This document shows, piece by piece, positions 567 to 17,415 of a stretch of DNA of 17,415 nt. Origin of the DNA: a virus (taxonomy: Duplodnaviria; Heunggongvirae; Uroviricota; Caudoviricetes); the IMG/VR virus record IMGVR_UViG_2724679538_000009. One strand, written 5' to 3'. The translations under genes were made by a program, and so were the position numbers. Positions within the stretch are counted from its first letter, which is position 1, and the number at the start of each line of letters is the position of its first letter. The notes beneath the pieces are model-generated. The model was given only the letters and a program-made list of their open reading frames with translations, had not been told where the DNA came from and did not search any database.

Positions 567-586
567 TACTGTATACACATACAGTA
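567..586. promoter_or_regulatory. Candidate LexA (SOS) box TACTGTATACACATACAGTA
   Basis: Perfect CTGT-N8-ACAG dyad with flanking TA; 18 of 20 positions match the E. coli LexA consensus TACTGTATATATATACAGTA. Lies in the 537-bp divergent control region between the Mor-like gene and the lysis/tail operon. Confidence 0.55.
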
Positions 587-2222: not shown

Positions 2223-2678
2223 ATGGAAATTTTATCAGTAATGAATTCTGTTGTGACCAGATTATGTGAACAGAATCCCGAAATGGATGTATCTATTTCA
2301 TCGGTTGATGCCCATAAATATATTCCGCAGACGCAGCAAGTTACAGTGATTATTAATTATAGCGGTTCTCTATTTGCCATGTCTGAAAGCAGTGATGCTC
2401 TCGTGCAACAGCAAACGCTCCGTTTAACTGCCACCGTTATTGTTGGCAAAAATTGTGACGCGTTAAACGCACTGGACCGCATACGCAGCGCACTGGGGGG
2501 GATCCAGCTTCCTGATTGCGAGCGTCTTCTTTGGCTTGAAAAAGAAATCAATGCAGGCGAGAGCGGTGGTTTCTGCCGCTACATCCTGGAAATGGCGACC
2601 AGCTCGCTGTTTATCGCGAAACGGGAAAGCACGGACCTTACCCTGCTTACTGAAGTTAATTACGAGGAAACTGAATGA
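2223..2678 (+). CDS. Hypothetical acidic protein (possible tail completion/virion protein)
   Basis: 151-aa ORF with an SD-like AAGGGA upstream. Translationally coupled to the next ORF (ATGA overlap). Position between the lysis cassette and the sheath gene. No recognisable motif. Confidence 0.45.
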   Translation: MEILSVMNSVVTRLCEQNPEMDVSISSVDAHKYIPQTQQVTVIINYSGSLFAMSESSDALVQQQTLRLTATVIVGKNCDALNALDRIRSALGGIQLPDCERLLWLEKEINAGESGGFCRYILEMATSSLFIAKRESTDLTLLTEVNYEETE

Positions 2679-2872
2679 AATACATCTACAACGGCCCGGC
2701 AAGCGGCGTCACCCTTGCCGACGGACAAGAAATCTTATTGTGGCCGAACAGTGAAATTGATCTGCCAGAAGACAACGAGTGGGTCATGACCATGATTGCC
2801 CGCAATCATCTGACTCCTGTCATCACTCAGGAAGAACAAAATAACGGAGAGGAAATTGTACATGGCAGCTAA
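2675..2872 (+). CDS. Small hypothetical protein
   Basis: 65-aa ORF, ATGA-coupled to the upstream ORF and overlapping the sheath start by 11 nt. Acidic; function unknown. Confidence 0.35.
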   Translation: MKYIYNGPASGVTLADGQEILLWPNSEIDLPEDNEWVMTMIARNHLTPVITQEEQNNGEEIVHGS

Positions 2873-4283
2873 TTATCTGCACGGTGTAGAAACCATTGAA
2901 ATTGAAACCGGCCCGCGTCCGGTTAAAGCGGTAAAATCCGCCGTCATCGCTTTAATCGGTACGGCCCCCTGTGGTCCGGTAAATAAACCAACATTATGCC
3001 TTTCTGAAAGCGATGCTGCGCAGTTTGGTTCGACTCAGGCTAACTTTACGATCCCGCAGGCGTTAAAGGCGATTTACGACCATGGCGCCGGTACAGTGGT
3101 GGTAATTAATGTGCTGGATCCGGTAAAACATGGACTGCATGTTGCCAATGAAACTATTACGTTCAATAGTGCCGATAAAGCTAAATTAGCTCATCCGGGA
3201 GTAAGTTCAGTAATATTAAGACCAAGTACCAATTCCACTACGTACAAAAATACATCTTACAATGTTAATGCTGCAGATGGCGTTATTACCCGTACCGGAA
3301 CTGAAATCCCGGCAGGGGCGAAGGTTTACGCGACGTATACCTATGTTGACCCTACAAAGGTCACCGCAGCCGATATTATCGGTGCCGTTAATACCGCAGG
3401 CGATCGCACGGGGATGAAACTGCTACAGGACACCTATAACCTGTATGGTTTCTACGCCAAAATCCTGCTTGCTCCCGTGTTCTGTACGCAAAAATCAGTA
3501 ACTACCGAGCTGATTGCACAAGCGGAAAAACTTGGTGCGATTACCTACATTGATGCCCCGATTGGGACGACATTCCAGCAGGTATTGGCAGGACGCGGTT
3601 CGCAAGGGGCTATCAACTTCAACACCAGCTCTGATCGTGCGCGTTTATGTTACCCACACGTCAAAGTTTACGATGGCATCACTAACCAGGAAGTTCTCGA
3701 ACCGCTCTCTTCGCGCGCTGCCGGGCTACGTGCCAAAGTAGACCTCGAAAAAGGTTTCTGGTGGAGCAACTCAAACCAGGAAATTCAGGGTATTACCGGT
3801 ATTGAACGTTCGCTTTCCGCAATGATTGATGATCCTCAAAGCGAAGTGAATCAGCTCAACGAAAACGGCATTACCACTATTTTCAATAGTTACGGCTCTG
3901 GTCTGCGCTTGTGGGGCAACCGCACAGCGGCATGGCCTACCGTGACCCATATGCGTAACTTTGAAAACGCCCGCCGGACAGGCGATGTAATTAATGAGTC
4001 AATCCGTTATTTCAGTCAGCAGTATATTGATATGCCGATTAATCAGGCGCTGATTGATGCCCTGACCGAATCGGTAAATACCTGGGGCCGTAAGCTGATT
4101 GCCGACGGCGCACTGCTTGGCTTTGAGTGCTGGTACGATCCGGCGCGAAATTCACCGACCGAACTCAGCGCCGGGCATTTATTGCTGAGCTATAAATTCA
4201 CCCCGCCACCGCCGCTGGAACGTCTGACGTTTGAAACTGAAATTACTTCTGAATATTTAGTCTCTCTGGAGAGCAATAGCTAA
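2862..4283 (+). CDS. Contractile tail sheath protein
   Basis: 473 aa from ATG 2862 (GGAGAGGAA upstream; the ORF track uses an upstream TTG at 2856). Size and position immediately upstream of the tube gene are typical of Mu gpL / P2 FI-type sheath proteins. Confidence 0.85.
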   Translation: MAANYLHGVETIEIETGPRPVKAVKSAVIALIGTAPCGPVNKPTLCLSESDAAQFGSTQANFTIPQALKAIYDHGAGTVVVINVLDPVKHGLHVANETITFNSADKAKLAHPGVSSVILRPSTNSTTYKNTSYNVNAADGVITRTGTEIPAGAKVYATYTYVDPTKVTAADIIGAVNTAGDRTGMKLLQDTYNLYGFYAKILLAPVFCTQKSVTTELIAQAEKLGAITYIDAPIGTTFQQVLAGRGSQGAINFNTSSDRARLCYPHVKVYDGITNQEVLEPLSSRAAGLRAKVDLEKGFWWSNSNQEIQGITGIERSLSAMIDDPQSEVNQLNENGITTIFNSYGSGLRLWGNRTAAWPTVTHMRNFENARRTGDVINESIRYFSQQYIDMPINQALIDALTESVNTWGRKLIADGALLGFECWYDPARNSPTELSAGHLLLSYKFTPPPPLERLTFETEITSEYLVSLESNS

Positions 4284-4807
4284 TGGCTGGAAAAATTCAA
4301 ATTAACCGTATTACCAACGCCAATATTTATCTCGATGGTAATAACCTTTTAGGTCGTGCAACCGAAATTAAATTGCCGGATGTCAGTTTAATTATGCAAG
4401 AGCATAAGGCACTGGGTATGGTCGGCAAAATCGAACTCCCGGCAGGTTTCGATAAACTGGAGGGCGAAATTAAATGGAACTCCTTTTATCAGGACGTCAT
4501 GCGTAAAACGGCAAACCCGTGGCAGGCGGTGGCATTACAGTGCCGCTCCAGTATTGATTGCTATAACTCCCAGGGGAAAGCGAATCAATTAGCGTTAGTG
4601 ACACATTTAACCGTGATGTTTAAAAAAAATCCCCTGGGCACATTTAAACAGAATGAAAACCCGGAATTCAGCAGCGCCTTTGGCTGTACTTATATTAAAC
4701 AGGTGGTCGATGGTGAAACACTGCTGGAGCTGGATTACCTGGCGAATATTTTCCGCGTTAACGGCGTGGATCAATTAAGTACCTATCGCAATAACATCGG
4801 TGGCTAA
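4283..4807 (+). CDS. Tail tube protein (P2 FII-like)
   Basis: 174 aa; TAATG stop-start overlap with the sheath gene; size and order match tail tube proteins. Confidence 0.8.
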   Translation: MAGKIQINRITNANIYLDGNNLLGRATEIKLPDVSLIMQEHKALGMVGKIELPAGFDKLEGEIKWNSFYQDVMRKTANPWQAVALQCRSSIDCYNSQGKANQLALVTHLTVMFKKNPLGTFKQNENPEFSSAFGCTYIKQVVDGETLLELDYLANIFRVNGVDQLSTYRNNIGG

Positions 4808-4811
4808 GTTA

Positions 4812-4831
4812 TTCGGGGCTACGGCCCCGAA
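4812..4831 (+). terminator. Stable stem-loop immediately downstream of the tube gene (possible partial terminator/attenuator)
   Basis: ttcggggc-tacg-gccccgaa forms an 8-bp GC-rich stem with a 4-nt loop, 5 nt after the tube stop codon. No downstream U-run, so not a canonical intrinsic terminator. Confidence 0.3.
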
Positions 4832-4857
4832 CTTCGCAAAATAAATAAGGATACAAA

Positions 4858-5175
4858 ATGAAAGAGCATTATATCTTACAGTTCCCGTTTACTTCAGCGG
4901 CGGGAGACGTAATTAACACTCTGCAATTACGTCGCCTGAAAGTAAAAGATATGCGCAACGCGCGCCGGATCAGCGAAAAGCCAGAAGAGTGGGATGAACC
5001 GCTGATGGCGGCGATGACCGGACTGGTGCCAGAAGATTTAGCTGAAATGGATTTGCTGGATTACCAGGCATTGCAGAAACGATTTCAATCCATGCTTAGC
5101 GTGGCTACAGAATCCGCCACTGTTATGGCAAGCGATGGCGTTACTGGCGAGATGGTTTCGCTTTCCGCCCAGTGA
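4858..5175 (+). CDS. Tail assembly chaperone (gpE/G-like)
   Basis: 105-aa acidic ORF between tube and tape-measure genes, the conserved position of the frameshifted chaperone pair in long-tailed phages. A +1-frame continuation is open to 5263. Confidence 0.55.
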   Translation: MKEHYILQFPFTSAAGDVINTLQLRRLKVKDMRNARRISEKPEEWDEPLMAAMTGLVPEDLAEMDLLDYQALQKRFQSMLSVATESATVMASDGVTGEMVSLSAQ

Positions 5176-5251
5176 GATAGACGCCCTTACCGTCGATGAC
5201 TTTAGCAACTGGCTGGATGAAGCCAGCGCCCAAATAAAAATCGAATATGAC

Positions 5252-5272
5252 TCGCAGACCTGATGTCTGCGA
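5252..5272 (+). other. Perfect 8-bp inverted repeat (tcgcagac-ctgat-gtctgcga) in the chaperone-tape measure spacer
   Basis: Read directly from sequence. Overlaps the end of the +1-frame extension (stop at 5261-5263). No following U-run. Confidence 0.4.
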
Positions 5273-5363
5273 GTCCTTCAAGGCCCACCAGGTTTATTTC
5301 TTCCCAGTCCATTTTTCAGAAAACTAACCAGCGGGCCATCACCAATTTATAAGAGAAACAATT

Positions 5364-7739
5364 TTGGCCAACGATATTATTACCCAGCTTCAGGCGCGTA
5401 ATGAGACGTTGACGCAGGCAATAGCCCGTTACGGCTCACTCAACGCCAGAACATTGTTAGCTCTCTCTACTCAGCAAGCGACAGTTATCAAACTAACGCA
5501 GCGGCTTGCCGATTCCGCTCTCCGCCTGGAGGAAAATAGCCGCAGCCGCGCTAATCTGATGGAGAAAACCCACACATTTGCCGGGCAATTTAGCAAAGTA
5601 TTCAATGTTGAAGCCCCCGACTGGAAGTTGCCGTATGAGTTCCAGGACAACATGGTCAATATGGCGACCAAAGGTGGGATGAATGATACAACTCGCGAGA
5701 CGCTCAGCCTTAATCTGCGCGACTGGAGCATGGATTTTAACCAGCATCAGACCACCTTACAGAACGCAGCCCAAACGCTGATCGAAGGCAATTTGTCGTC
5801 GATACAGGATCTCAACCGTTATATGCCGGAGATCGCCAAAGCTGCCACCGCCACGCGCGAAAGTGCTGAAACATGGGCGAATGCCGCGCTCGCAACCCAT
5901 GATCGACTGAATATTGCGCCAGAAAATTTCCACGTCGCGCAAAACATGATGTACGGCATTAGCAAAAGCGGTGGGCCTGCCGTTGCCGAGCAAACGCTGT
6001 GGATAGACAAATTTGCAGGTAAAACCGGCGCTCAGGGTCTGGAAGGTATGGCTGAACTGACTGCCGCCATGCAGATCGCCATGAAAAACGGAGCCAGCGC
6101 CAGTGCGGCGGCGGAGAATTTCGACCACTTTCTGCAAACCACCTTTTCGAAAAAGACCGATAACTGGTTCGCCAGCCAGGGCGTCGATCTGCAAGGCTCT
6201 CTGCTTGAACATCAGCAAAACGGTATGGGTGTTAGCGAAGCCATGACTCATATCGTACAAATGCAGCTTGAGAAGATGAATCCGGCGATCCTCGACACCT
6301 TCAAACGCACTATGCAGATTGAAGATTTATCTGCTCGCAGCAATGCGCTGCAATCGATGGTGACGCAATTTAATCTAGGCGAAATGTTCGGCGATGCGCA
6401 AACGGTGGAATTCCTGGCACCTATGCTGGCGAATATGGAGGAATATCGCCAGTTAAAAACCTCTGCCATGCAAGCCACCAGCAAGAATCTGATTGATGCC
6501 GACTTTTCTGCGCAAATGGCCTCGCCCATTGAACAGACTAAAGCGTTACAGCTGGCGTTAAATGATTTATGGCTCAGCATTGGCTTGCAATTAATGCCGC
6601 TGATTGGCGAGCTGGCACAAAGCCTTACGCCGGTTATTCGTCAGTTCAGCGCCTGGCTACGTGAGCACCCGACACTGGTGCAAAACATCGCGAAAATCGT
6701 CGGGGCGATTTGGCTGTTTAACGGTGCGCTGAATGTTTTAAAGCTGGGCGCGAACCTCATCACCTCGCCGTTTATTCGTCTGGTCGATATCTTCCTGAAA
6801 GTCAAGGCAAGTCTGGCGCTCACAGGCGGGGCAAGTAAGATGCTATCAGCGGTTAAGTCATTGGGTGGCGGCGCAAAATGGCTAATGCAACTGCTTGGTC
6901 GTGGCCTGATTAGCGCACTGAAACAGGTAGGTCAGACCGTCTTCTGGTTGGGTAGGGTTTTATTGATGAATCCCATTGGCCTGGTCATCACCGCAATTGC
7001 GGGTGCTGCTTATCTGATTTATCGCAACTGGGAGCCTATCTCCAGGTTCTTTTCGACCATCTGGCAACGTATCACCACGGCCTTTGACGGCGGTATTGCA
7101 GGGATTTGCCGGTTGATTCTCGACTGGTCGCCGCTGGCTTTGTTCTATAGCGCCTTTTCCAGTGTGATGAATTGGTTTGGTGTCGAGATGCCTGCAAGTT
7201 TTAGCGAGTTCGGCAGCAATCTTCTGGGCAGTCTGGTTGACGGCATAATGAATGCCTTCCCCGCTCTGAAAGGCATTATTGATCAGGTAAAAAACGTCAT
7301 CCCAGACTGGCTAAAAACCACGATGGGTATTAGTACAGAAGGATCGGCTACAGCTATTACAAGCACGACTAATACCGCATCCGTCTCCCCCGCGACCGTT
7401 GTTCCAGGCGTTGCCGGTGCGATTTTAACGCCTCCGGTGGGGAAACAACTCGCGCCATCCAGTAAAACGACAACGCCGCCATCGGCACCTGCGGCAAAAA
7501 ATACAGCCGCCAAACCCGCATCGGCCTCTTTACCAGGTAAATCCGTAACCAAACCGGCGACGCTACCTTCCCGTTCCTCTGGAAAAGTTCAGGTGAATTT
7601 TTCGCCACAGATTACCGTGCAGGGTAACGGACAAAACACCACTAAAGAGATTCAGAACGTGTTGACGATGAGTAAACGCGAACTGGAAAGAATGATTAAC
7701 GACGTAATGGCGCAGCAGCAGCGCCGGGGGTATGCCTGA
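5364..7739 (+). CDS. Tail tape measure protein
   Basis: 791 aa; helical N-terminal half, hydrophobic central segments, Pro/Thr/Ala/Ser-rich C-terminal region; located between chaperone and baseplate genes. The only start after the in-frame stop at 5325-5327 is TTG at 5364 (AAGAG upstream), so the start codon is uncertain. Confidence 0.8.
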   Translation: MANDIITQLQARNETLTQAIARYGSLNARTLLALSTQQATVIKLTQRLADSALRLEENSRSRANLMEKTHTFAGQFSKVFNVEAPDWKLPYEFQDNMVNMATKGGMNDTTRETLSLNLRDWSMDFNQHQTTLQNAAQTLIEGNLSSIQDLNRYMPEIAKAATATRESAETWANAALATHDRLNIAPENFHVAQNMMYGISKSGGPAVAEQTLWIDKFAGKTGAQGLEGMAELTAAMQIAMKNGASASAAAENFDHFLQTTFSKKTDNWFASQGVDLQGSLLEHQQNGMGVSEAMTHIVQMQLEKMNPAILDTFKRTMQIEDLSARSNALQSMVTQFNLGEMFGDAQTVEFLAPMLANMEEYRQLKTSAMQATSKNLIDADFSAQMASPIEQTKALQLALNDLWLSIGLQLMPLIGELAQSLTPVIRQFSAWLREHPTLVQNIAKIVGAIWLFNGALNVLKLGANLITSPFIRLVDIFLKVKASLALTGGASKMLSAVKSLGGGAKWLMQLLGRGLISALKQVGQTVFWLGRVLLMNPIGLVITAIAGAAYLIYRNWEPISRFFSTIWQRITTAFDGGIAGICRLILDWSPLALFYSAFSSVMNWFGVEMPASFSEFGSNLLGSLVDGIMNAFPALKGIIDQVKNVIPDWLKTTMGISTEGSATAITSTTNTASVSPATVVPGVAGAILTPPVGKQLAPSSKTTTPPSAPAAKNTAAKPASASLPGKSVTKPATLPSRSSGKVQVNFSPQITVQGNGQNTTKEIQNVLTMSKRELERMINDVMAQQQRRGYA

Positions 7740-8692
7740 TGTATGCCGTTTTAGGAGAGATTGAATTTAAGGTTGTCACATTCTGGGACGGCTTTAAAAG
7801 CACAATGGGCGTGGATTACGCCACACATGCCCGTATAGAAGGCAAACCCGGCGTGCAGTTTATTGGCGATAAGCTGGATATGCTGGCGCTGGAATTTTCC
7901 CTGCACAGCCAGTTTTGCCAGCCCACAACAGAGCTGAACCGACTGCGTGAAGCCATGCTTGCTCACAAGGCGATGGCACTGGTATTTGGCAATGGCGATT
8001 ATCGCGGCTGGTTTGTGATTACGGAGCTAACCGCCACCCACCAGCACACCGATCCCTGGGGCAATGTGATTGCCCAAAACGGAACGATGTCGCTCCAGGA
8101 GTACACCGGCGATCCTAAAAATCCACTTTTACCTCCGGCGATTACCACCCAGGAGCCCAACATCGAGGAAAAGGCGAGCGATTTTCCCGACAAGGTGGAG
8201 TCCTGGTTTGATCAGATATTAAACGCCATTGAAGAAGGTATGCGTAAGGCCAAAGAGATGCTGGATGAACTGACACAATCCATTGAAGATATTAAAAAAA
8301 CGGTGGCAAAAGTGAAAGCACTGATTAAAGAGGCCAAAGCGTTAAAAGAAAAGTGTGAAAAGATAATTACGTCGTTGAAAAAGACAATCGACGCCATCGA
8401 AACCCTGTTTAAACAGCCGATGGATCTGCAAACGCTGGCAGGACTCCCAAAAGCGTTGTCGGCGCAGATTAAAGCTTTACTGGGTAACATGCCAGGAATC
8501 CGGGACTGCGCCAATGACGCCAGTACGCTGGTTGACCATGCTCAGGCGCTTTTCGATGACATTACCAGCGACATCGCCGAAACGACGTTTGATAAAGCAG
8601 CAACGTTGGTTGATCAGGCACGAACAACGGTACAACGAACCACTCCAGCAGTGAGTCAGTTTGCTGCCGCAACCATTACGAGGAGCTGGTGA
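7739..8692 (+). CDS. Tail protein, gpU-like N-terminal domain (P2 gpU / Mu gpN DNA-circulation-like) with C-terminal coiled-coil extension
   Basis: 317 aa; TGATG overlap with the tape-measure stop. The N-terminal ~110 aa follow the P2 gpU pattern as recalled (MxxVLGxxxF...LVFGNGDYRGWFVITEL). C-terminal ~170 aa are Lys/Glu/Ala-rich and predicted helical. Confidence 0.55.
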   Translation: MYAVLGEIEFKVVTFWDGFKSTMGVDYATHARIEGKPGVQFIGDKLDMLALEFSLHSQFCQPTTELNRLREAMLAHKAMALVFGNGDYRGWFVITELTATHQHTDPWGNVIAQNGTMSLQEYTGDPKNPLLPPAITTQEPNIEEKASDFPDKVESWFDQILNAIEEGMRKAKEMLDELTQSIEDIKKTVAKVKALIKEAKALKEKCEKIITSLKKTIDAIETLFKQPMDLQTLAGLPKALSAQIKALLGNMPGIRDCANDASTLVDHAQALFDDITSDIAETTFDKAATLVDQARTTVQRTTPAVSQFAAATITRSW

Positions 8693-8901
8693 TGCGATAC
8701 CTTGAACATATCACCACCGACGGCGAACGCTGGGATAATCTGGCATGGCATTACTATGGCGATGCGCTGGCTTATGAACGCATTATCGCCGCCAATCCAC
8801 ATGTCGCCATTTACCCGGTACTACCTTCCGGTATTCAGCTCATCATTCCGGTCATTTCCGTCAACAAAACCGTATCGGAGATCCCACCATGGCTGAGATA
8901 A
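8692..8901 (+). CDS. Tail protein X-like (P2 gpX family, LysM-like)
   Basis: 69 aa from ATG 8692 (AGGAG 6 nt upstream, TGATG overlap). Pattern DGERWDNLAWHYYGD...AANPHV resembles P2 gpX (GDTLDAICVRYYGR...AANPGL) as recalled. Confidence 0.6.
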   Translation: MRYLEHITTDGERWDNLAWHYYGDALAYERIIAANPHVAIYPVLPSGIQLIIPVISVNKTVSEIPPWLR

Positions 8902-9929
8902 GCGTAACTGGCGGCGTCTTTGCCACGCTCGCGCCCATTTTTACCCTCTGGTATGGGCATAAAGATATCACTTATGACATCACGCCTTATGTCACCAGCA
9001 TCCGTTACCAGGACAGTATTAAAAACGAGTCGGATACCATCGCGATTACACTGGATGACACCGATGGACGCTGGATAAAAGAGTGGTATCCCGGCAAAGG
9101 CGATACGCTGGCGCTGCATATGGGTTATCAGGGGGAAAAACTGCTCGATTGTGGTCAATATATTATTGATAAAATTGATATTTCAGCGCCACCTTCCACG
9201 GTAAATATTGATGGCATCGCCACTTCCGTCAATCAGGCGCTGCGCACCCGTAACAGCCAGGGCTTTGAAGAAACGACGCTTTCGGCTATCGCCAGCCGTA
9301 TCGCCCAAACGCACGGTCTGAAACTGGTGGGCAAAATCGAGCCGCTCACCATCGACCGGGTAACGCAGTATGGTGAAACCGATGTCGGATTTCTCAAACG
9401 TCTGGCCAGTGAATATGGTTATGCCGTAAAAGTGACGACAAAAGAGCTGATTTTTTCACATTTACCCGCGCTGCGCTGCCTGGCACCGGTAAAAACGATC
9501 GACCGCAAAGACGTTTCGCATTTCACCTTCAAAGATACCATTAACCGTATCTACAAAAACGCCACCGTACAGCATCAAAATAGTAAGAAAAAAGAACTGG
9601 TTATCTACACCCACGACAGCCAGCAAAAACCGTCTGCCCGTGGAGTCGGCACCAGTGCCGACACGCTAAAACTGAACAGTCGGGCGACGGACGTTGGCGC
9701 AGCACAGGCAAAGGCCAACGCTGCACTCGACAGCCACAACGAATATCAGCAAACCGGGACGCTCACAATGATGGGCTGCCCGGAACTGACGGCGGGCAAT
9801 AAAATTGAACTGACCGATTTTGGCGTGATTTCCGGTCAGTGGCTAATTGATAAATCTACTCACAGTTTTGTGCGCAGCGGCTATACCACTGAAATCGACG
9901 TGTCGCGCGGGCCAGCGACCAGCCAGTAA
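8889..9929 (+). CDS. Baseplate hub / late control D-like protein (P2 gpD / Mu gpP family)
   Basis: 346 aa; follows the tape-measure, U-like and X-like genes as in P2 (T-U-D). Size and conserved-looking central region (FLKRLASEYGY) are consistent with gpD-type hub proteins. Confidence 0.75.
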   Translation: MAEISVTGGVFATLAPIFTLWYGHKDITYDITPYVTSIRYQDSIKNESDTIAITLDDTDGRWIKEWYPGKGDTLALHMGYQGEKLLDCGQYIIDKIDISAPPSTVNIDGIATSVNQALRTRNSQGFEETTLSAIASRIAQTHGLKLVGKIEPLTIDRVTQYGETDVGFLKRLASEYGYAVKVTTKELIFSHLPALRCLAPVKTIDRKDVSHFTFKDTINRIYKNATVQHQNSKKKELVIYTHDSQQKPSARGVGTSADTLKLNSRATDVGAAQAKANAALDSHNEYQQTGTLTMMGCPELTAGNKIELTDFGVISGQWLIDKSTHSFVRSGYTTEIDVSRGPATSQ

Positions 9930-9938
9930 GGAGGAAAT

Positions 9939-10640
9939 ATGAAAGGAGTAACCCGGCAAACGGGGATTATCAGCGATATTGACGAAACCAGCGTTCGGGT
10001 GCGGGTCACGCTCCCGGAGTGTGACAACCTGAAGAGCAACTGGCTTGCGGTACTTCAACGCAATTCCCAGGACAATAAAGACTACTGGCTACCGGATATG
10101 GGCGAGCAAGTGGAAGTTCTGCTGGACAATAACGGTGAAGATGGCGTGGTGCTGGGCGCAGTTTATTCTACGGTTGACACCGCGCCTGTGGCCTCGCGCG
10201 ATAAACGTTACGTCCAGTTTTCTGATGGCGCAGCGTTTGAATATGACCGCAGCACGCACCAGCTGACGATTAACGGCGGTATCGAGAAAATCGTGATTGA
10301 GGTTATCGACAGTACCCGCCTGACATCACCCAACGTTGAGATTAAAGCCCAACAGGTCATCGTGACTTCCGATACTGTCGATGTTAAAGCGACCGATGTC
10401 AGCATCGACGCCACTAAGGTCGATGTTAAAGCGGCAGCAGTGACGGTAGACGCGCCCATGAGCACCTTTACTGGCAACGTCACGGTAATGAAAAAACTCA
10501 CCTGGCTTGGCGGGATGGCAGGAAGTGGAGGCATCGGTAACGCCGCCACGATAACTGGCAATGTCAACGTGATCGGCAACGTTCAGGCCAGCGGCGCATT
10601 GCAGGACAGCGGTGGCAACTCCAACCACCATACACACTGA
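9939..10640 (+). CDS. Baseplate spike protein (P2 gpV-like)
   Basis: 233 aa; GGAGG Shine-Dalgarno upstream; repetitive beta-strand-like VDVKA motifs consistent with a beta-helical spike; C-terminus ends in a His cluster (SNHHTH); located directly before the gp25/W-like gene. Confidence 0.7.
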   Translation: MKGVTRQTGIISDIDETSVRVRVTLPECDNLKSNWLAVLQRNSQDNKDYWLPDMGEQVEVLLDNNGEDGVVLGAVYSTVDTAPVASRDKRYVQFSDGAAFEYDRSTHQLTINGGIEKIVIEVIDSTRLTSPNVEIKAQQVIVTSDTVDVKATDVSIDATKVDVKAAAVTVDAPMSTFTGNVTVMKKLTWLGGMAGSGGIGNAATITGNVNVIGNVQASGALQDSGGNSNHHTH

Positions 10641-10645
10641 CGTTT

Positions 10646-10675
10646 AACCCGCCTGATGGCGGGTTTTCTCTTTTT
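10646..10675 (+). terminator. Rho-independent terminator between spike and gp25-like genes
   Basis: aacccgcc-tgat-ggcgggtt is a perfect 8-bp stem with a 4-nt loop, followed by ttctcttttt, 6 nt after the spike stop codon. Confidence 0.65.
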
Positions 10676-10738
10676 AATCAATCAGTTTTCTAAATCGCTT
10701 TAATATCGCCACAGCCCGTTCAGGGCGAAAATACCCTC

Positions 10739-11098
10739 ATGAACACAAAAACACGACCCTCAACGCTGCACTGGCAACCGGCCTTGCAGCGGCCTGAAGA
10801 ATACGTCTGCGGGCTGGATGATATTCACCAGGCGATACACATCATTCTGCGCACACCGCGCGGCAGTGATCCTCACAGACCGCTGTTTGGCAGCAACTTG
10901 TGGCACTACATCGATTACCCCATCGAGCGGGCAATCCCGCATGTGGTACGGGAGTCGGTGGAAGCCATCCGCCAGTGGGAACCGCGCTGTCGGTTGCTGA
11001 AGGTGACACCAGTAATCGACGGTGAACATCTGACGTTACGTGTGCAATGGCGCGCCGCTGACGGCGTTATCAACTCAACGGAGGTGTTATGGCGATAG
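10739..11098 (+). CDS. Baseplate wedge protein (P2 gpW / T4 gp25-like)
   Basis: 119 aa; motifs typical of the GPW/gp25 family (RPLFGSNLWHY, WEPRCRLLKV); overlaps the J-like gene start by 10 nt. Confidence 0.8.
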   Translation: MNTKTRPSTLHWQPALQRPEEYVCGLDDIHQAIHIILRTPRGSDPHRPLFGSNLWHYIDYPIERAIPHVVRESVEAIRQWEPRCRLLKVTPVIDGEHLTLRVQWRAADGVINSTEVLWR

Positions 11099-12204
11099 CC
11101 GAACCCAATTTTATTGACCGCGATCCTGCGCAAATTACCAGTGAGATGATTGCGCAATATGAAGATGCCAGCGGTAAAAAACTCTATCCGGCACAGGCTG
11201 AGCGGTTGCTCATCGACCTGTTTGCCTATCGTGAAAACCTTGTACGCATCGCCATTCAGGAAGCGGCGAAACAAAACCTGGTCGCGTATTCCCGCGCGCC
11301 AATGCTGGATTATTTAGGGGAGTTGGTGGGAGTTCACCGTTTGCCTGCGCAGCCTGCAAAAACGACGTTGCAGTTTTCGGTCGTCAGTGCGTATACCAGC
11401 AATATCCTGATTCCCCAGGGGACGCGGGCCAGTGCTTCTGATAGCGTGATGTTCGCCACCGATGAAGATGTTCTGCTTCCGGCCAGGAGTTTGCATATCG
11501 CCGTTCCTGCCACCAGCCTCGCAGCAGGTGAACAGGGCAACGGCTGGCAGCCTGCACAAATTAGCGCACTGGTCGACAGGATTGGTCATTATGACATCAA
11601 CGTAACCAACCTGACTGCGTCAACGGGCGGCTGCGGTGAAGAGAGCGATGACGCATTGCGCCAGCGTATCCAACTGGCACCAGAAAGCTTTAGTAATGCG
11701 GGCAGCTATGGCGCATACCGCTTTCATACGCTTTCTGTTAGCCAGTCGATTATTGACGTTGCAGTACTGGGGCCGGACGAGGGATTGCCAGAAGGCTGCG
11801 TGGAGATCTACCCGCTAACCCTGAACGGACTGCCAGGAATAGAACTGCTCGCGCAAATCGAACAGGAGGTTAGCAAGGAGAAAAAACGTCCGCTGACCGA
11901 CAAAGTGAGTGCGAAATGCGCTCTTCGAGTGCCGTATGAGATCCGTGCTCAGCTAACGCTGTTTACCACCGCCGATCAGGAGACAACGCTGGCTGCGGCG
12001 CGTAAAGCGATTAGCCTCTGGACGCAACAGCGGCAGAAACATCTGGGGCAGGACATTGTGCCAAACCAGATAATCAAAGTGTTACAGGTCGATGGCGTCT
12101 ATGACGTTGCGCTGAATATGCCTACAAAACGTATTTTGCAGGCGCATGAATGGGCGGAATGCACTGCAATAGACGTCACGATTGCCGGAGTCAGCGATGG
12201 ATAA
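11089..12204 (+). CDS. Baseplate J-like protein (P2 gpJ / Mu gp47 family)
   Basis: 371 aa; GGAGG 4-5 nt upstream; position between W-like and I-like genes. Confidence 0.85.
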   Translation: MAIAEPNFIDRDPAQITSEMIAQYEDASGKKLYPAQAERLLIDLFAYRENLVRIAIQEAAKQNLVAYSRAPMLDYLGELVGVHRLPAQPAKTTLQFSVVSAYTSNILIPQGTRASASDSVMFATDEDVLLPARSLHIAVPATSLAAGEQGNGWQPAQISALVDRIGHYDINVTNLTASTGGCGEESDDALRQRIQLAPESFSNAGSYGAYRFHTLSVSQSIIDVAVLGPDEGLPEGCVEIYPLTLNGLPGIELLAQIEQEVSKEKKRPLTDKVSAKCALRVPYEIRAQLTLFTTADQETTLAAARKAISLWTQQRQKHLGQDIVPNQIIKVLQVDGVYDVALNMPTKRILQAHEWAECTAIDVTIAGVSDG

Positions 12205-12916
12205 ATTGCTGCCACCGCCGCCGCTTGCCAGCGATGAGCGTTTTTCGATTCTGGCAAACATCGCCGCCGAGCGTTTTGCCCAACTCGATCTGACGGCGTT
12301 GATGGTTTATCTGGTCGACCTGGTTGATGCTTCGGCATTACCAGCCCTTGCAGAACAATTTCACGTTCAGGGGCTGGAAGGTTGGTTATTTACCACCGAT
12401 GAGCGGGAGAAGCGCGAGTTAATTAAACAAGCCATTGAACTGCATAAATATAAAGGAACAATTTGGGCGGTACGGCGGGTGCTGGAAATACTTTCCTTAC
12501 CCGGAACTATTTCAGAATGGTTTGAATATGGGGGAAGGGCTTATTTTTTTAAGGTAAATATTACACTAGAGGAAAAAGGATTAAATAAAGATGAATTCAA
12601 TGCACTTATCACATTAATTCATGAATATAAAAATGTTCGTTCAAAGCTGGAAAGCATTGTTATTTGGCTTATTAATCGAAGCCCAATACCAGTTATTGGC
12701 AGCGCCATGCAAGGAGGGGAAGTCATTACAGTATTGCCTCCTGTTGCAGAAAGCCTCAGCCAGTCATCAGGAATATTTTTGGCGACGGGTTATTGTGTGG
12801 AGGAATATATCCAACTACTACCTTATCAACCCGATCGCCTTACACAATCCCAACCGATGAAGGTCGGCACAGGATACTGGAGCACCGAAATTATGTCTGT
12901 ATATCCGGAGGAATAA
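12197..12916 (+). CDS. Tail protein I-like (P2 gpI family)
   Basis: 239 aa from ATG 12197 (GGAG 6 nt upstream; the track start is TTG 12182). [17 protein letters not shown] matches the P2 gpI CHKGTIGAIRRVVEPL region as recalled; C-terminal ...SVYPEE resembles the gpI ...VITVYPG end. C-terminal half is AT-rich. Confidence 0.8.
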
Positions 12917-14496
12917 TGGCAAGTGAATTTTTTACAATATTAACTACTGCAGGCAAAGCCAAAATTGCCTCTGCATTGACGGAGCAAAAACAGATCCGTC
13001 TGCAAACTATGGTAGTTGGCGACGGTAATGGTAAATATATCGAACCGACAGAAAGTCAGACTAAAGTAGTCCATGAGGTCTGGCGTGGTCAGCTCAATAC
13101 ATTAAAAATTGCGCCAGATAATCCGGCCTGGGTTATCGCAGAAGCGATTATTCCCGAACAAGTCGGAGGCTGGTATGTACGCGAAGTTGGGTTACTGGAT
13201 ACCGACGGCACGCTGGTCGCTATTGGTAAATTTCCGGAAACCTATAAGCCACGATTACCTGCGGGGGCCAGTAAGCAAATCGTTATACGCGCGGTCATGG
13301 AAGTCACCAATGCAGACGCGGTGACGCTTTTGATCGACCCTTCAGTCGTTGTGGCAACCAGGGAATATGTCGATGACGCGTTGAAAACACATCAGCAATC
13401 ACGAAATCATCCTGATGCGACGCTAACACAAAAAGGTTTTACACTGCTGAGCAATGCGACTAATAGCGATGATGAAACCAAAGCTGCCACACCAAAAGCG
13501 GTAAAAACGGCATATGACCTGGCAAATAGCAAAGCTGCCACCAGTCATAATCATGCCTGGAATCAGATTACTGGTATCCCTGATGGTACACTGACGCAGA
13601 AAGGAGTCGTTAAACTTAACAACACAACAAATAGCACCAGTACAACGGAAGCTGCAACGCCAAGTGCTGTTAAAGCAGCGATGGACAAGGCTATTGCTGC
13701 GGCACCGTCCAGCCATACCCATGCCTGGGGGCAAATAACAGGTATCCCCGACGGTACGCTGACACAAAAAGGGGTCGTGAAACTTAATAATGCGACCAAC
13801 AGCACCAGTACGACGGAAGCTGCAACGCCGAACGCGGTTAAGGCAGCGATGGATAAGGCTATTGCTGCGGAAAGCTGTCCTGTAGGGATGCCTATACCCT
13901 GGCCATCTGATTCTGTACCTTCAGGCTACGCTCTGATGACTGGTCAGACATTTAATAAAACCTCCTATCCCAAACTGGCAATTGCATATCCATCTGGCGT
14001 TATTCCTGATATGCGCGGATGGATAATTAAAGGAAAACCATCCAGTGGGCGCGCTATATTATCTACTGAACTGGATGGAGTTAAATCACATAACCATACG
14101 GGCAGTATTTCTAGTACCAATTTAGGGACAATAACATCTACCTCTACGGACTTAGGAACAAAAACTACAGCTTCATTTAATCATGGAAGTAGAAATACAA
14201 GCACATCTGGAGAACATACACACCGAATACCAACTGATGGTGCAGAAGGTAAAGATGGACCGTCTTTATGGAACAGCCCCAATTCAGATGAGAACTACAG
14301 AGAACCTACTGAGTCTGCTGGTAGTCATTATCATAGTATTACGATTGGCGCCCATGCACATACAATCGCACTGGGAAGTCATACACATAATATTGTGTTA
14401 GGTACACATAATCACTCAATTATCATCAATAACACTGGCAATACAGAAAATACTGTTAAAAACATTGCATTCAATTATATTGTGAGGCTTGCATGA
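12916..14496 (+). CDS. Tail fibre protein (P2 gpH-like N-terminus, repeat-containing shaft, His-box C-terminal tip)
   Basis: 526 aa from ATG 12916 (GGAGG 6 nt upstream). N-terminal ~200 aa closely track P2 gpH as recalled ([41 protein letters not shown]...[14 protein letters not shown]). Contains 56-aa tandem repeats and C-terminal HxH motifs ([32 protein letters not shown]). Confidence 0.85.
13420..13870 (+). repeat. In-frame tandem direct repeats, 168-bp period (about 2.7 copies) inside the tail fibre gene
   Basis: Units begin at 13420, 13588 and 13756, each encoding TLTQKG(V/F)..[27 protein letters not shown]...[12 protein letters not shown]. Copies 2 and 3 are near-identical at DNA level. 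Confidence 0.75.
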
Positions 14497-15200
14497 ATAC
14501 TTTTACTTTTTCCGATAACGCACAAATTTTATCTGTTTTTAATTTTTCACCAGACACACAAGAATTTATTGGTGAGTCCAATGTATATATAGCACCAAAC
14601 ACTGGACTACCGAATTACTGCACATTAACACCACCACCACAAAAAATTGCAGGTTTTACTTCTATATGGTCAATTAATAAATGGGAACTTATTGAAGATC
14701 ATCGAGGCCAAACTGTTTATAACAAAGTTGATGGCAGCCAGATTATTATTAATAAATTGGGTCAATTGCCTGAAACTGTCACCATCATTTCCCCTACCAG
14801 TACTTTTGAGCGTTGGGATGGCGAAAAATGGCAGCCATCAATTGATGATGCTAAACAGGCGAAATGTGCCGAAATCAAAACATTGCGCGACTCCATCACT
14901 ACCGACTACATCATCATCAACGACAATTACTTCCACAGTGATACAAGCAGCCGCATCCAACAACTCTCACTCACAAAAATGGGAGCGGAGAAAAAAATTC
15001 CGCCAGGTTTAATGTGGAAAACTAAAAATAATGGTCTGACTGAGTTAACCAACGAAATCGCTGCCCAGTTTGAATCCGTCACAATGGATCACGATATACG
15101 CTTGTTTGCCAACGCCCAACGCCATATCGCGGCGGTGGAAGCTCTGGACGATATTCAGTCGGTACTCGACTACGATTATTCAACAGGCTGGCAACCATGA
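14493..15200 (+). CDS. Tail fibre assembly protein (lambda Tfa / P2 gpG family)
   Basis: 235 aa; ATGA overlap with the fibre stop. N-terminal region [32 protein letters not shown]...[13 protein letters not shown] parallels lambda Tfa (EFIGEGDAYIPPHTGLP...PPDIPAGF...WHLVEDHRGKTVY) as recalled. Confidence 0.8.
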
Positions 15201-15652
15201 GTAAAACTACAGTCTGGCTCGCTTGCTATAAAGGGCGAACAGAGCACCGGGTTATTGCGAGACTGGCTGACTGGCTTACACGCAAAATCACTCGCGGCAG
15301 TTATTCCCACTGTGAATTAGCCGTAGCACATGGAGAAAAGAGTTACCTTTGTTACTCCGCCTCTCTGCGCGATCGAGGCGTTCGTGGAAAGATAATGCCT
15401 TTACCGCCAGACAAGTGGGATATGCTGCCGCTCCAGGTCAGCCTTCAGGATGTAGAAGCTTTTTTCCGTAAACATGATGGCAAAAAATACGACTGGCGTG
15501 GAGCCTTAGGAATTATCACCGGCAATAAAGAACAGCGCGATCGCCTGTTTTGTAGCGAATTTTGTGCCGAATTTCTGCAATTAAAAGAAAGTTGGCGCTA
15601 TTCCCCAAACCACTTGTACGCTTTAGTTAACAGTTGGCAATATCAACCATAA
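15197..15652 (+). CDS. Putative permuted papain-fold (YiiX/YaeF C92 / LRAT-like) thiol enzyme
   Basis: 151 aa; ATGA-coupled to the tfa stop. His-containing N-terminal motif (GSYSHCELAVAHG) and C-terminal GKKYDW...RLFCSEF resemble the GxxYDF...YCSEV signature of YiiX-type permuted NlpC/P60 proteins as recalled. No transmembrane segment. Confidence 0.4.
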   Translation: MSKTTVWLACYKGRTEHRVIARLADWLTRKITRGSYSHCELAVAHGEKSYLCYSASLRDRGVRGKIMPLPPDKWDMLPLQVSLQDVEAFFRKHDGKKYDWRGALGIITGNKEQRDRLFCSEFCAEFLQLKESWRYSPNHLYALVNSWQYQP

Positions 15653-15657
15653 ACTAC

Positions 15658-15680
15658 GCCGGGCTTCAAGCCCGGCTTTA
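15658..15680 (+). terminator. Terminator-like hairpin ending the tail operon
   Basis: gccgggc-ttcaa-gcccggc stem-loop followed by ttta, 6 nt after the stop of the 151-aa gene. Confidence 0.5.
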
Positions 15681-15796
15681 ATCAGGCTGTATATTCCATC
15701 ACAAACAAAGCACATGCTTATAAATATTCACAGTAATTATATTTCCATATTAACCATCCACTGAGTGAATATAGAAGAATTTAAATACAATAACTA

Positions 15797-15824
15797 TTGC
15801 ATTGTAAATTACATCAAATATAGT
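15797..15824 (+). promoter_or_regulatory. Candidate sigma70 promoter for the glycosyltransferase-like gene
   Basis: TTGCAT, 16-nt spacer, TATAGT within a 180-bp AT-rich spacer about 40 nt upstream of ATG 15866. The spacer contains the palindrome TGTAA-A-TTACA (15803-15813). Hexamer prediction by eye only. Confidence 0.3.
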
Positions 15825-15865
15825 TCACTACTTATATATTTTGCTAATCGCTACAGGGAAATTAC

Positions 15866-16594
15866 ATGTTTATTGTCTCAGTTCTCAGACAAAGTAAGGA
15901 TTTCACTATTAAACATGCACAATGGCTTCACCAGCAGCTGGATGGGTATAATTCCATTTGCATGACGGATGCTTCAGAAATCAAAGGGGTTCAAACCACT
16001 CCATTACTGTATAATTGGCCAGGATGGTGGGCAAAATTAGAGCTATTTAATCCCGAACATCCTGTTCTCGGGAATAAAGATATACTTTATATTGATATTG
16101 ATACTGTAATCGTCGGTGATATTACACAGTTTACTAAAATGAAAAAAGTAACATTACTGAACGACTTCTCGCAGCATGGTTCCAATGCTGCTCCTGCGAC
16201 TGGAATAATGTTCATTCCTGCGGACGCCAAAAAACTTGTCTGGGAAGAGTTTATGAGATCGCCTGAAACTGAAATAAATTCAACCAGAAAGCCGCCATAT
16301 CATGGGGATCAGGGATTTATCGGCAGAGTATGTCATGACGCTGAAAGATGGCAGGATATTTTTCCAGGACAAATTATCAGTTACAAAGCGAATATAGCGA
16401 CGCCTAAAATGATAGGCTTTAATCCTGACTTACACGATGGTAAAGCAAACGGAGAATTGCCATCGGATGCAAAAATTGTATGTTTTCACGGTTCACCTCG
16501 TCCCTGGAACACAGCTCTCCACTGGGTTCCAGGTTTCAGCATAAAAAACACACTCTGCAGCAAATTTAAACAGCTCAAATATTCTCTTCGGTAA
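15866..16594 (+). CDS. GT-A fold glycosyltransferase, GT8-like (DXD and HxxGxxRPW motifs)
   Basis: 242 aa; AGGGAA Shine-Dalgarno upstream. DILYIDIDTVIVGD matches the GT8 DXD region (LgtC KVLYLDIDVLV as recalled) and VCFHGSPRPWN matches the GT8 C-terminal HxxGxxKPW motif. Markedly AT-rich relative to the tail genes; flanked by terminator hairpins. Confidence 0.5.
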   Translation: MFIVSVLRQSKDFTIKHAQWLHQQLDGYNSICMTDASEIKGVQTTPLLYNWPGWWAKLELFNPEHPVLGNKDILYIDIDTVIVGDITQFTKMKKVTLLNDFSQHGSNAAPATGIMFIPADAKKLVWEEFMRSPETEINSTRKPPYHGDQGFIGRVCHDAERWQDIFPGQIISYKANIATPKMIGFNPDLHDGKANGELPSDAKIVCFHGSPRPWNTALHWVPGFSIKNTLCSKFKQLKYSLR

Positions 16595-16614
16595 AAAACT
16601 TTTTTATTGGAAGG

Positions 16615-16635
16615 CGCCGGGCATCACGCCCGGCG
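16615..16635. terminator. Bidirectional terminator-like hairpin between convergent genes
   Basis: cgccgggc-atcac-gcccggcg is a perfect 8-bp stem with a 5-nt loop; A-run and T-run immediately upstream on the plus strand. The nucleotidyltransferase stop codon lies in the loop; 20 nt downstream of the glycosyltransferase stop. Confidence 0.5.
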
Positions 16636-17415
16636 TATCACTGTTTGATACAACAACCCATCCAGTTCCCTGGCATCTCCGTCCCTGCTGTCTGGTAACA
16701 CTGGTGGAATTTCCCCGTGCGCCAGTTCCGCGCGAATAAATGCATGTAACAATGGACGACGCGGACCATATTCCGCTTCTCCCGCGCGCTGTTTACGTTC
16801 CAGCAGCTCGTCTATTTCTGCGCGTAACGGCGCATCAAGTTCGGTTCCCGTCAGTAACTCAGCAAAGCGCATTGGCGGTACGCCTTTTCCCGCTTCAACC
16901 CAACGCACAGCCAGTAATGGTCGCAGCACGTAAAAGTATTTTTTCAGCCGAACTACGTCGCCCTGCAAATAACCGCGAAAGTTTTTCCGCGCCATCGAAT
17001 AATAATGCCAACGCGCACGCAGCGGAGAAAACCACTTCGGCACCATTGCCTTAAGCGGCGTTATCGTTTCTTCATCTTGTTGATAGACCACCGGAGAATC
17101 CAGCCATTCAATCAGCGTCGGATTAGCGCCTTTCAGTAATCCCAGCGCCTTGCGCCACTCCCAGCCTGAAACATCTAACTCGTCGTCAATAGGCAACTCA
17201 ATAACATCGCGCGGCGCCTCCACCCGCAGATACCATTCCAGCGGGTGAACATACAAAAATCGTACATCGTAGTCGCTGTCGGGAGAGGCAAATCCCCAAC
17301 CGCGACTCCCCGATTCGCAGGCGTACAGCACTTTCACGCCATAGCGACGTTCTATTTCTTTTAATTGCTGCGATACCCGTTCGCGCATCGCAGCACTGAC
17401 TCCATTTATTGGCAT
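16624..17415 (-). CDS. Pol-beta superfamily nucleotidyltransferase-domain protein
   Basis: 263-aa ORF whose ATG is the last three bases of the window. N-terminal ESGSRGWGFASPDSDYDV matches the GS-x(9-13)-DxD nucleotidyltransferase signature; helical C-terminal half. Higher GC than the adjacent cargo gene. Confidence 0.6.
   Translation of the reverse strand: MPINGVSAAMRERVSQQLKEIERRYGVKVLYACESGSRGWGFASPDSDYDVRFLYVHPLEWYLRVEAPRDVIELPIDDELDVSGWEWRKALGLLKGANPTLIEWLDSPVVYQQDEETITPLKAMVPKWFSPLRARWHYYSMARKNFRGYLQGDVVRLKKYFYVLRPLLAVRWVEAGKGVPPMRFAELLTGTELDAPLRAEIDELLERKQRAGEAEYGPRRPLLHAFIRAELAHGEIPPVLPDSRDGDARELDGLLYQTVIRRA

Follow-up and report, generated by a model that had tools for sequence, protein, structure and literature searches.

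SOS control of a tailocin by way of an activator is already known in principle, and direct LexA control of phage-derived functions is already well known. Here we describe a LexA box at positions 567–586 of a 17,415-nucleotide stretch of DNA from the virus record IMGVR_UViG_2724679538_000009 of IMG/VR; the whole stretch analysed is called the window. The box lies between mor, which encodes an activator of the Mor family, and a divergent holin–lysis–tail operon, in a gene cluster whose content points to a headless, R-tailocin-like contractile tail of BcepMu/Mu type. Literature searches found no description of this Escherichia coli/Salmonella cluster or of its LexA box.

The closest described system is the RdgA/RdgB circuit of carotovoricin in Pectobacterium carotovorum, which also governs a Mu/BcepMu-type tailocin and has the same two tiers, a DNA-damage signal acting on an activator and the activator acting on lysis and tail genes. 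RdgB serves as an annotation for the Mor family, the activator family of the present cluster, and RdgB itself is reportedly Mor-like, in work of Liu et al. from 1994 and 1997. RdgA resembles cI or LexA. The sensors differ: in Pectobacterium the dedicated repressor RdgA is essential, whereas here a host LexA box stands at the activator gene. A pectin lyase is moreover a target in Pectobacterium, and none is involved here. The carotovoricin cluster is a Mu-type tailocin with no repressor gene of its own inside, RdgA being encoded elsewhere (PMC13566846). For the pyocins under PrtR/PrtN control, SOS removes the repressor and one positive regulator then activates the tail and lysis genes (PMC10598620), a two-tier logic common to pyocins and this cluster. 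The PrtR/PrtN system differs in that its LexA-like PrtR is encoded at the locus and is not LexA, its PrtN is unrelated to Mor and its tail is of P2 rather than BcepMu/Mu type. The locus-associated repressor of such dedicated-repressor circuits (PrtR/PrtN, RdgA/RdgB) has no counterpart in the present cluster.

A host LexA box on the promoter of a small phage-derived regulator is likewise found at tum of phage 186, at Gifsy antirepressors and at dinI homologues; tum of coliphage 186 is a LexA-controlled prophage switch. The 186 and Gifsy antirepressors inactivate a resident phage repressor, whereas the gene here encodes an activator and there is no repressor to inactivate. LexA-regulated Gifsy genes have been cited (PMC8072944). 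Colicin operons also place a bacteriocin and lysis under direct LexA control in Enterobacteriaceae, but the present locus has one box only, at a distance of 296 bp to the first lysis gene and of 221 bp to the activator gene. At colicin promoters a pair of overlapping boxes usually follows the −10 closely, directly ahead of the toxin gene. Finally, the single LexA box between the divergent uvrA and ssb genes is thought to serve both, and shared SOS boxes have been noted more generally (PMC8072944); uvrA and ssb are DNA-repair genes with short leaders, whereas the candidate leaders here are 200–300 nt long.

The LexA box and its conservation

Bases 567–586 read TACTGTATACACATACAGTA and agree with the LexA consensus at 18 of 20 positions, with an intact CTGT-N8-ACAG core; both mismatches fall within the central AT spacer. 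A first-pass annotation of the window had claimed a near-consensus box with a perfect core at this place, about 220 bp from the Mor start and about 300 bp from the holin start, and both the match and the distances, measured to the respective ATG codons, proved correct.

567–586, no strand: LexA operator (SOS box) TACTGTATACACATACAGTA, called from consensus match, matrix score, heterology index and conserved position in orthologous loci

The site is the sole match to TACTGTATATATATACAGTA at three or fewer mismatches in the window, and no match arose in 200 dinucleotide-preserving shuffles; the CTGT-N8-ACAG core is present once, with a chance expectation of 0.21. For scoring with a LexA position weight matrix, a check proposed in the first-pass annotation, we used an approximate matrix of 29 E. 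coli sites from the literature. On this matrix the box reaches 25.2 bits and would rank fourth against the 29 training sites; it lies above the best of all 200 shuffled windows (top matrix score 20.1, mean 10.5), and the next-best LexA-like site of the control region scores 2.6 bits. The Lewis-type heterology index of the box is 2.9, the same training sites spanning 0.95–9.0. By sequence and score, 567–586 is a canonical enterobacterial LexA operator, and LexA very probably binds it.

Next, we compared the mor–holin control regions of GTDB representatives (Dryocola, Phytobacter and two Superficieibacter species), of contigs encoding close Mor homologues and of 26 enterobacterial tailocin-type loci in IMG/VR. 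A box was present in 23 of these 26 loci, at 19–27 bits, and lay 219–244 bp upstream of the mor ATG in 22 of the 23 box-bearing loci and 291 bp upstream in the remaining one, which has an insertion. Boxes of the GTDB loci scored 21.6–27.3 bits, and that of Salmonella SARB27, AACTGTATATATATACAGTA, scored 29.3 bits. The box thus occurs in E. coli haplotypes, Salmonella, Phytobacter, two Superficieibacter species, Dryocola and further lineages. The 25 distinct orthologous 160-nt segments on which conservation was counted hold 17 box variants, in which positions 3–6 (CTGT) and 15–18 (ACAG) are invariant and positions 9–12 carry two or three alleles each. Arms that stay fixed across 17 variants while the centre drifts are what one would expect of selection on the LexA contacts rather than on the whole sequence. 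The distance from box to mor is kept, whereas that from box to holin varies from 296 to 347 bp across indel-rich sequence.

No box was found near mor in about 40 true Mu-like phages of Pasteurellaceae, in BcepMu or in Klebsiella phage KP12. In true BcepMu-like phages mor directly follows gemA as the last gene of the early operon. As true Mu-like phages are without it, the box goes with the headless, repressor-less form of the element.

Some variation was also seen at the box itself. The closest IMG/VR contig (L029, 17,417 nt) and the window disagree at a single base in 2845, box position 2 (568, A versus G); we take it as a natural polymorphism because E. coli A37 has the window's base. Among the E. 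coli haplotypes (window 575–578; L029–L039), the 30 nt on each side of the box are nearly identical and the central four bases differ in almost every haplotype, with the reverse-complement pairs GTGT/ACAC and GCAC/GTGC; it looks as if the inner palindrome of the box flips among them.

Separately, a weaker LexA-like site, TACTGTATAATTGGCCAGGA, is present at 16005–16024 (16.5 bits; heterology index 8.3) and holds a perfect TATAAT. It lies about 140 nt within a 242-amino-acid open reading frame (ORF; 15866–16594) that matches a PHROG glycosyltransferase moron family. This site could have arisen by chance, the best shuffle scoring higher (20.1 against 16.5 bits).

The cluster and its candidate control elements

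All matches to the window among complete E. coli genomes are chromosomal (197 of 5426 genomes, none on plasmids), and the copies are 90–100% identical. In E. coli A37 the cluster sits between lysC and host genes near yjbD and rluF, with mor abutting lysC. The gene order is mor, on the − strand, a very AT-rich intergenic region of 537 bp, the holin–lysis–tail operon and a few cargo genes at the end.

1–345, − strand: mor, activator of the Mor/C/RdgB family, 114 amino acids (PF08765, PHROG 532, PDB, phage homologues)
883–2105, + strand: lysis cassette of holin (883–1170), SLT transglycosylase (1173–1778) and lipoprotein-like protein (1791–2105) (PF13272, PF01464, PHROG holin and lipoprotein families, RefSeq annotation of A37)
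2223–15200, + strand: contractile tail, comprising Gp37, sheath, tube, chaperone, tape measure, D/V/W/J/I-type baseplate, fibre and fibre-assembly proteins (ORFs, RefSeq, Pfam)

Mor matches Pfam PF08765 (E value 4e-38, 130 bits), PHROG 532 ('late transcriptional activator') and, in the PDB, Mor (1rr7; E value 3e-8) and Mu C (E value 8e-5), and these matches identify a Mor fold with a C-terminal helix–turn–helix. With BcepMu gp01 and with phiE255 gp32, a protein annotated 'RdgB', it shares 49% identity. The cluster has the gene content of an R-tailocin, a full contractile tail and lysis cassette without capsid, packaging, replication or integration genes, and in E. coli the ORFs of the complete tail and lysis cassette are uninterrupted. 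No capsid, terminase, transposase, integrase or repressor gene was found in the cluster by ORFs, A37 annotation, Pfam or PHROG. The flanks likewise have no integrase or capsid gene, and no gene for a cI/LexA-type autocleavable repressor was found in the window or within 20 kb on either side in A37, the rest of the host genome lying outside this search. The cluster is probably domesticated and would make tail particles. According to the record notes of Salmonella SARB27, the orthologous genes are STM4213–STM4219 of S. Typhimurium LT2, mor being STM4219.

The first-pass annotation had further suggested that the box would tie expression to DNA damage without a phage repressor. This view is supported by the box score, the invariant arms, the lack of a repressor gene in cluster and flanks and the lack of a box in true phages, all of which are properties of the sequences compared. 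The conserved operator, the missing phage-type repressor and the box-less true phages together make it natural to see host LexA as standing in for a phage repressor.

Around the box, promoter-like hexamers were found in both directions, and a leader could precede mor.

556–561, − strand: candidate mor-ward −10, TAAAAT, 5 nt past the box, which would cover the −35 and spacer; predicted start at about 549; within a conserved block
587–600, − strand: A-rich tract (gtaaaaataa) at about −38 to −51 of the putative mor-ward promoter, resembling an UP element
558–585, + strand: holin-ward sigma-70-like site from a promoter scan, TTTACA (558–563)-16-TACAGT (580–585), with the −10 inside the box and a predicted start at about 592
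346–549, − strand: putative mor leader of about 200 nt, AT-rich, with a few conserved blocks and a strong Shine–Dalgarno sequence, GGAGAT

Read towards mor, the conserved module consists of the A-rich tract, the box, five bases and GTGTAAAATG. The GTGTAAAATG block (555–564, reverse complement) is kept in about 22 of the 25 distinct segments, and positions −7 to −3 before the box are 64–96% A over the 25. The A-tract resembles an UP element as judged by the established UP-element consensus. The mor-ward TGTATA-16-TAAAAT matches the promoter consensus at 8 of 12 positions at best, in several genera, TAAAAT being a good −10 and the −35 a poor one. Towards holin, the candidate TTTACA-16-TACAGT is the sole promoter-like site that the scan returned in 300–950, and the same was true in the Salmonella and Phytobacter intergenic regions; by consensus (9 of 12 positions), a match that does not in itself speak for function, it is present in 20 of the 25 distinct segments. 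Its −10 loses the T at −7 in two lineages (L040 and L045–47) and the T at −12 in Dryocola, the box being retained. It is quite possible that a single operator is common to two back-to-back promoters.

Other candidates in this region were rejected. A second leftward promoter, TTTACA (608 to 603)-16-TACTGT, is Escherichia-specific and is not conserved outside Escherichia. A promoter closer to mor at the conserved TGAATGTATTGA and GCACCTGTTT blocks had no acceptable −10 and no sigma-54 match. For a structured mor leader, RNAalifold yielded a single weak 5-bp helix, GCACC/GGTGC, and Rfam gave no family match over 1–2000 even at an E value of 1. A tisB-like toxin was set aside as well: the 25-amino-acid ORF at 710–787 is without a Shine–Dalgarno sequence, and it falls where conservation of the intergenic region is lowest and indels are frequent.

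Between the box and the lysis and tail genes, further blocks are conserved.

606–627, no strand: block AAAAAGATCGTTTCCCTCACAG, containing GATC, kept in the E. coli, Salmonella, Phytobacter, L037 and L046 lineages
636–662, + strand: conserved AT-rich block TTTCTTAAACAAACTTTAAAAATCAA
795–826, + strand: AT-rich block TTTTTTAAACTTATTTATTAAAGC, its core ending 65 bp upstream of the holin ATG; candidate Mor-dependent late promoter
2110–2140, + strand: block AATTTTTTCTCTAAAGCAGATTAAAAG upstream of gp37, kept across six genera/lineages; second candidate late promoter

The 606–627 block lies in a CGATC-N5-GATCG palindrome in Salmonella and Phytobacter. In Salmonella SARB27 (L082, 2694–2719) terminator-like hairpins are found on both strands, about 50–60 nt past the predicted holin-ward start. 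The hairpin is absent or weak in the window and the other lineages, where z-scores were non-significant and no consensus structure emerged; a conserved terminator or small RNA after the holin-ward start is thus clear in SARB27 alone and is kept as a lead only. The 636–662 block may bind an activator or a nucleoid protein. The 795–826 block is the most conserved intergenic non-coding block in all seven aligned lineages, box-less ones included, and has no second copy in the window. Exactly two copies of TCTAAA-N5-TTAA are present, each on the + strand in an intergenic gap, at 2119–2133 before gp37 and at 10689–10703 before gpW; the motif was derived from these two sites, and its expectation of 0.03 is not an independent test. 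By analogy with Mu Pm and late promoters, it is plausible that the blocks before holin and gp37 and the related sequence before gpW are activator-dependent late promoters, with Mor the presumed activator.

The cargo end of the cluster appears variable. Beyond the fibre-assembly gene, window 15197–17415 differs from A37 (L001, 34949–37342): the window carries a 151-amino-acid ORF, a glycosyltransferase-like ORF and an RlaP-family nucleotidyltransferase, and A37 carries a hypothetical protein, a nucleotidyltransferase-domain protein and a slipin-family protein.

The proposed circuit and its rivals

The best-supported mechanism, which we regard as probable, is a cascade in which LexA represses mor and Mor activates the late promoters. 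In the undamaged cell, a LexA dimer on the box would block RNA polymerase. Upon DNA damage, RecA-stimulated self-cleavage of LexA would free the promoter, and mor mRNA with a leader of about 200 nt would be made. Mor would then switch on late promoters upstream of holin, gp37 and probably gpW, and tail particles would be produced, followed by lysis. In this way host LexA would stand in for the two elements, phage repressor and early operon, by which mor is driven in real BcepMu-like phages. Control on the mor side is favoured because the box-to-mor distance is kept while the box-to-holin distance varies, because two box-bearing lineages have a holin-ward −10 without its T at −7, because a conserved activator needs a link to the inducing signal and because the inferred Salmonella mor rises with nalidixic acid. 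A long distance between box and start codon has a precedent in tisB, whose box lies 236 bp from its ATG (PMC8072944 Table 1).

The expression data come from S. Typhimurium 14028, in which nalidixic acid raised STM14_5073 4.08-fold, from 49 to 204.5 transcripts per million (PMC8072944 Dataset S1). We take STM14_5073 as the orthologue of STM4219/mor because it is 348 nt long, lies on the + strand and is about 23 kb from yjbJ/lexA. Other genes in the range STM14_505x–507x are absent from the differential list (PMC8072944 Dataset S1). Provided that strain 14028 carries the box, the Salmonella RNA sequencing weakly favours the order of LexA repressing mor and Mor acting on late promoters. The first-pass annotation had left undecided which promoter the box controls; its caution stands in so far as promoter-like hexamers overlap the box both ways, and the choice is now partly narrowed, with Salmonella expression favouring the mor side.

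Several observations weigh against this cascade. Nalidixic acid left the holin and tail genes of Salmonella uninduced, and the rise of mor is weakened as evidence by the 1091 genes called up and by cultures that differed in growth state too (PMC8072944). Nor does STM14_5073 appear among the SOS genes tabulated with a box, and a lexA null mutation kills LT2 solely through the Fels-2 prophage, such mutants of other Salmonella strains being viable (PMC8072944); if these strains carry cluster and box, either LexA is not the sole brake on a lethal lysis cassette or the Salmonella cluster is defective. At the promoter, the mor-ward −35 matches at just two or three of six positions, and the better sigma-70 match (9 of 12) faces holin, not mor. 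A common Mor motif was tried with TCTAAA-N5-TTAA and rejected: it misfits the spacing of the holin block, is unenriched at one mismatch and was chosen post hoc. Last, the Enterobacter lineage (E. hormaechei L021/L022, L050, L053 and L054) keeps mor, holin and tail without the box; what is left is a decayed remnant with a heterology index of 20, and the adjacent TGTAAAAT block is lost as well.

As a side observation on the table of SOS genes, a small annotated ORF over the box, such as the coding sequence at 2651–2782 of SARB27 (L082), is one possible reason for the omission of STM14_5073.

The box has also been lost or split elsewhere. In one truncated cluster (L026) mor and the lysis genes are kept, the cluster ends after them and the box region is lost. 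In two Salmonella loci (L019 and L020) mor is an orphan beside lysC, the tail genes are lost and homology stops about 145 bp upstream of the mor ATG. In E. coli IAI39 (L081, NC_011750.1), which we take to be of phylogroup F, the ISL3-family element ISEc53, with a ClbS/DfsB-family passenger gene, is inserted exactly at the box centre (window 573–580); its 8-bp target duplication, ATGTACAT, is the box spacer, and the half-sites are now about 2 kb apart. Eleven of the 197 carrier genomes have no full-length match, and four of these, among the matches listed, are each split at the ISEc53 point; the inserted element was identified in IAI39.

We weighed three other explanations of the locus. That 567–586 is not a LexA site, and is instead a chance palindrome, the operator of another dimeric regulator or an insertion-sequence hotspot, we consider very improbable. 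LexA binding is read from the sequence, ISL3-family elements favour AT-rich palindromes and one of them sits in the IAI39 box; yet no shuffle matched the consensus, the site scores with the best of the proven boxes, the conserved positions coincide exactly with known LexA contacts and Mor is the only regulator that the cluster encodes. A colicin-like arrangement, in which the box mainly represses TTTACA-16-TACAGT, a leader of about 290 nt runs into holin, SOS induction directly drives the lysis–tail operon and Mor is auxiliary, for amplification or timing, or is independently expressed, is the main rival, and we judge it rather unlikely. It draws on the holin-ward site being the only sigma-70-like result of the scan in the intergenic region in three genera, with its 9 of 12 consensus positions kept in 20 of 25 segments, and on the overlap of box and −10, which is the classic arrangement at sulA and umuDC. 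It is harder to reconcile with a Salmonella nalidixic-acid list that includes the inferred mor orthologue and not the holin or tail genes, with the variable distance to holin over poorly conserved sequence with indels, and with the terminator-like hairpin that in Salmonella lies about 50–60 nt downstream of the holin-ward start. The holin-ward −10 moreover loses its T at −7 or −12 in lineages that keep the box, and mor is strongly conserved next to the box (82–100% amino-acid identity).

The third explanation accepts LexA binding but gives it little output, the operator being buffered or a relic and the cluster gated by H-NS, another signal or decay. The uninduced late genes of Salmonella and the viability of lexA nulls outside LT2 are in its favour, as are the loss of the box in Enterobacter, the loss of tail genes in L026, L019 and L020, the ISL3-family element that splits the IAI39 box, with further E. 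coli genomes whose match is split in the same way, and the AT-richness of the intergenic region. Invariant arms with a drifting centre speak instead for continuing purifying selection for LexA binding, and the uninterrupted tail and lysis ORFs of E. coli likewise argue against decay, so that we hold this explanation to be unlikely. Returning to the LexA–mor cascade, a wider form of it is a tentative possibility: a BcepMu-like transposable phage would have been domesticated in Enterobacteriaceae to a chromosomal R-tailocin, a working and so far undescribed SOS-inducible bacteriocin of Salmonella and of E. coli lineages that include ST648 and IAI39. Its sole regulator gene, mor, would have been separated from the early operon of the phage and placed under host LexA, and one operator, where two back-to-back promoters overlap, would gate mor together with a brief divergent transcript, a leader or small RNA stopping at the hairpin that is clear in Salmonella.

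Possible consequences for carriers of the cluster

We file the locus as a new member of the LexA regulon and a variant of RdgA/RdgB and PrtR/PrtN control; the finding extends established ideas and overturns none. It offers an example of regulatory domestication, with a host operator in place of a phage repressor, for which the loss of the box in Enterobacter and the insertion-split variants are natural comparisons. Should mor be gated directly by LexA, an SOS-controlled killing and lysis module is carried by about 4% of the complete E. coli genomes (197/5426), and the same module would be present in cluster-bearing Salmonella (STM4213–STM4219 in LT2) and several other enteric genera. Quinolones and other SOS-inducing antibiotics would then trigger tail particles and lysis in carriers, which would matter for competition in the gut, for how vesicles and DNA are released and for the way engineered tailocins are designed.

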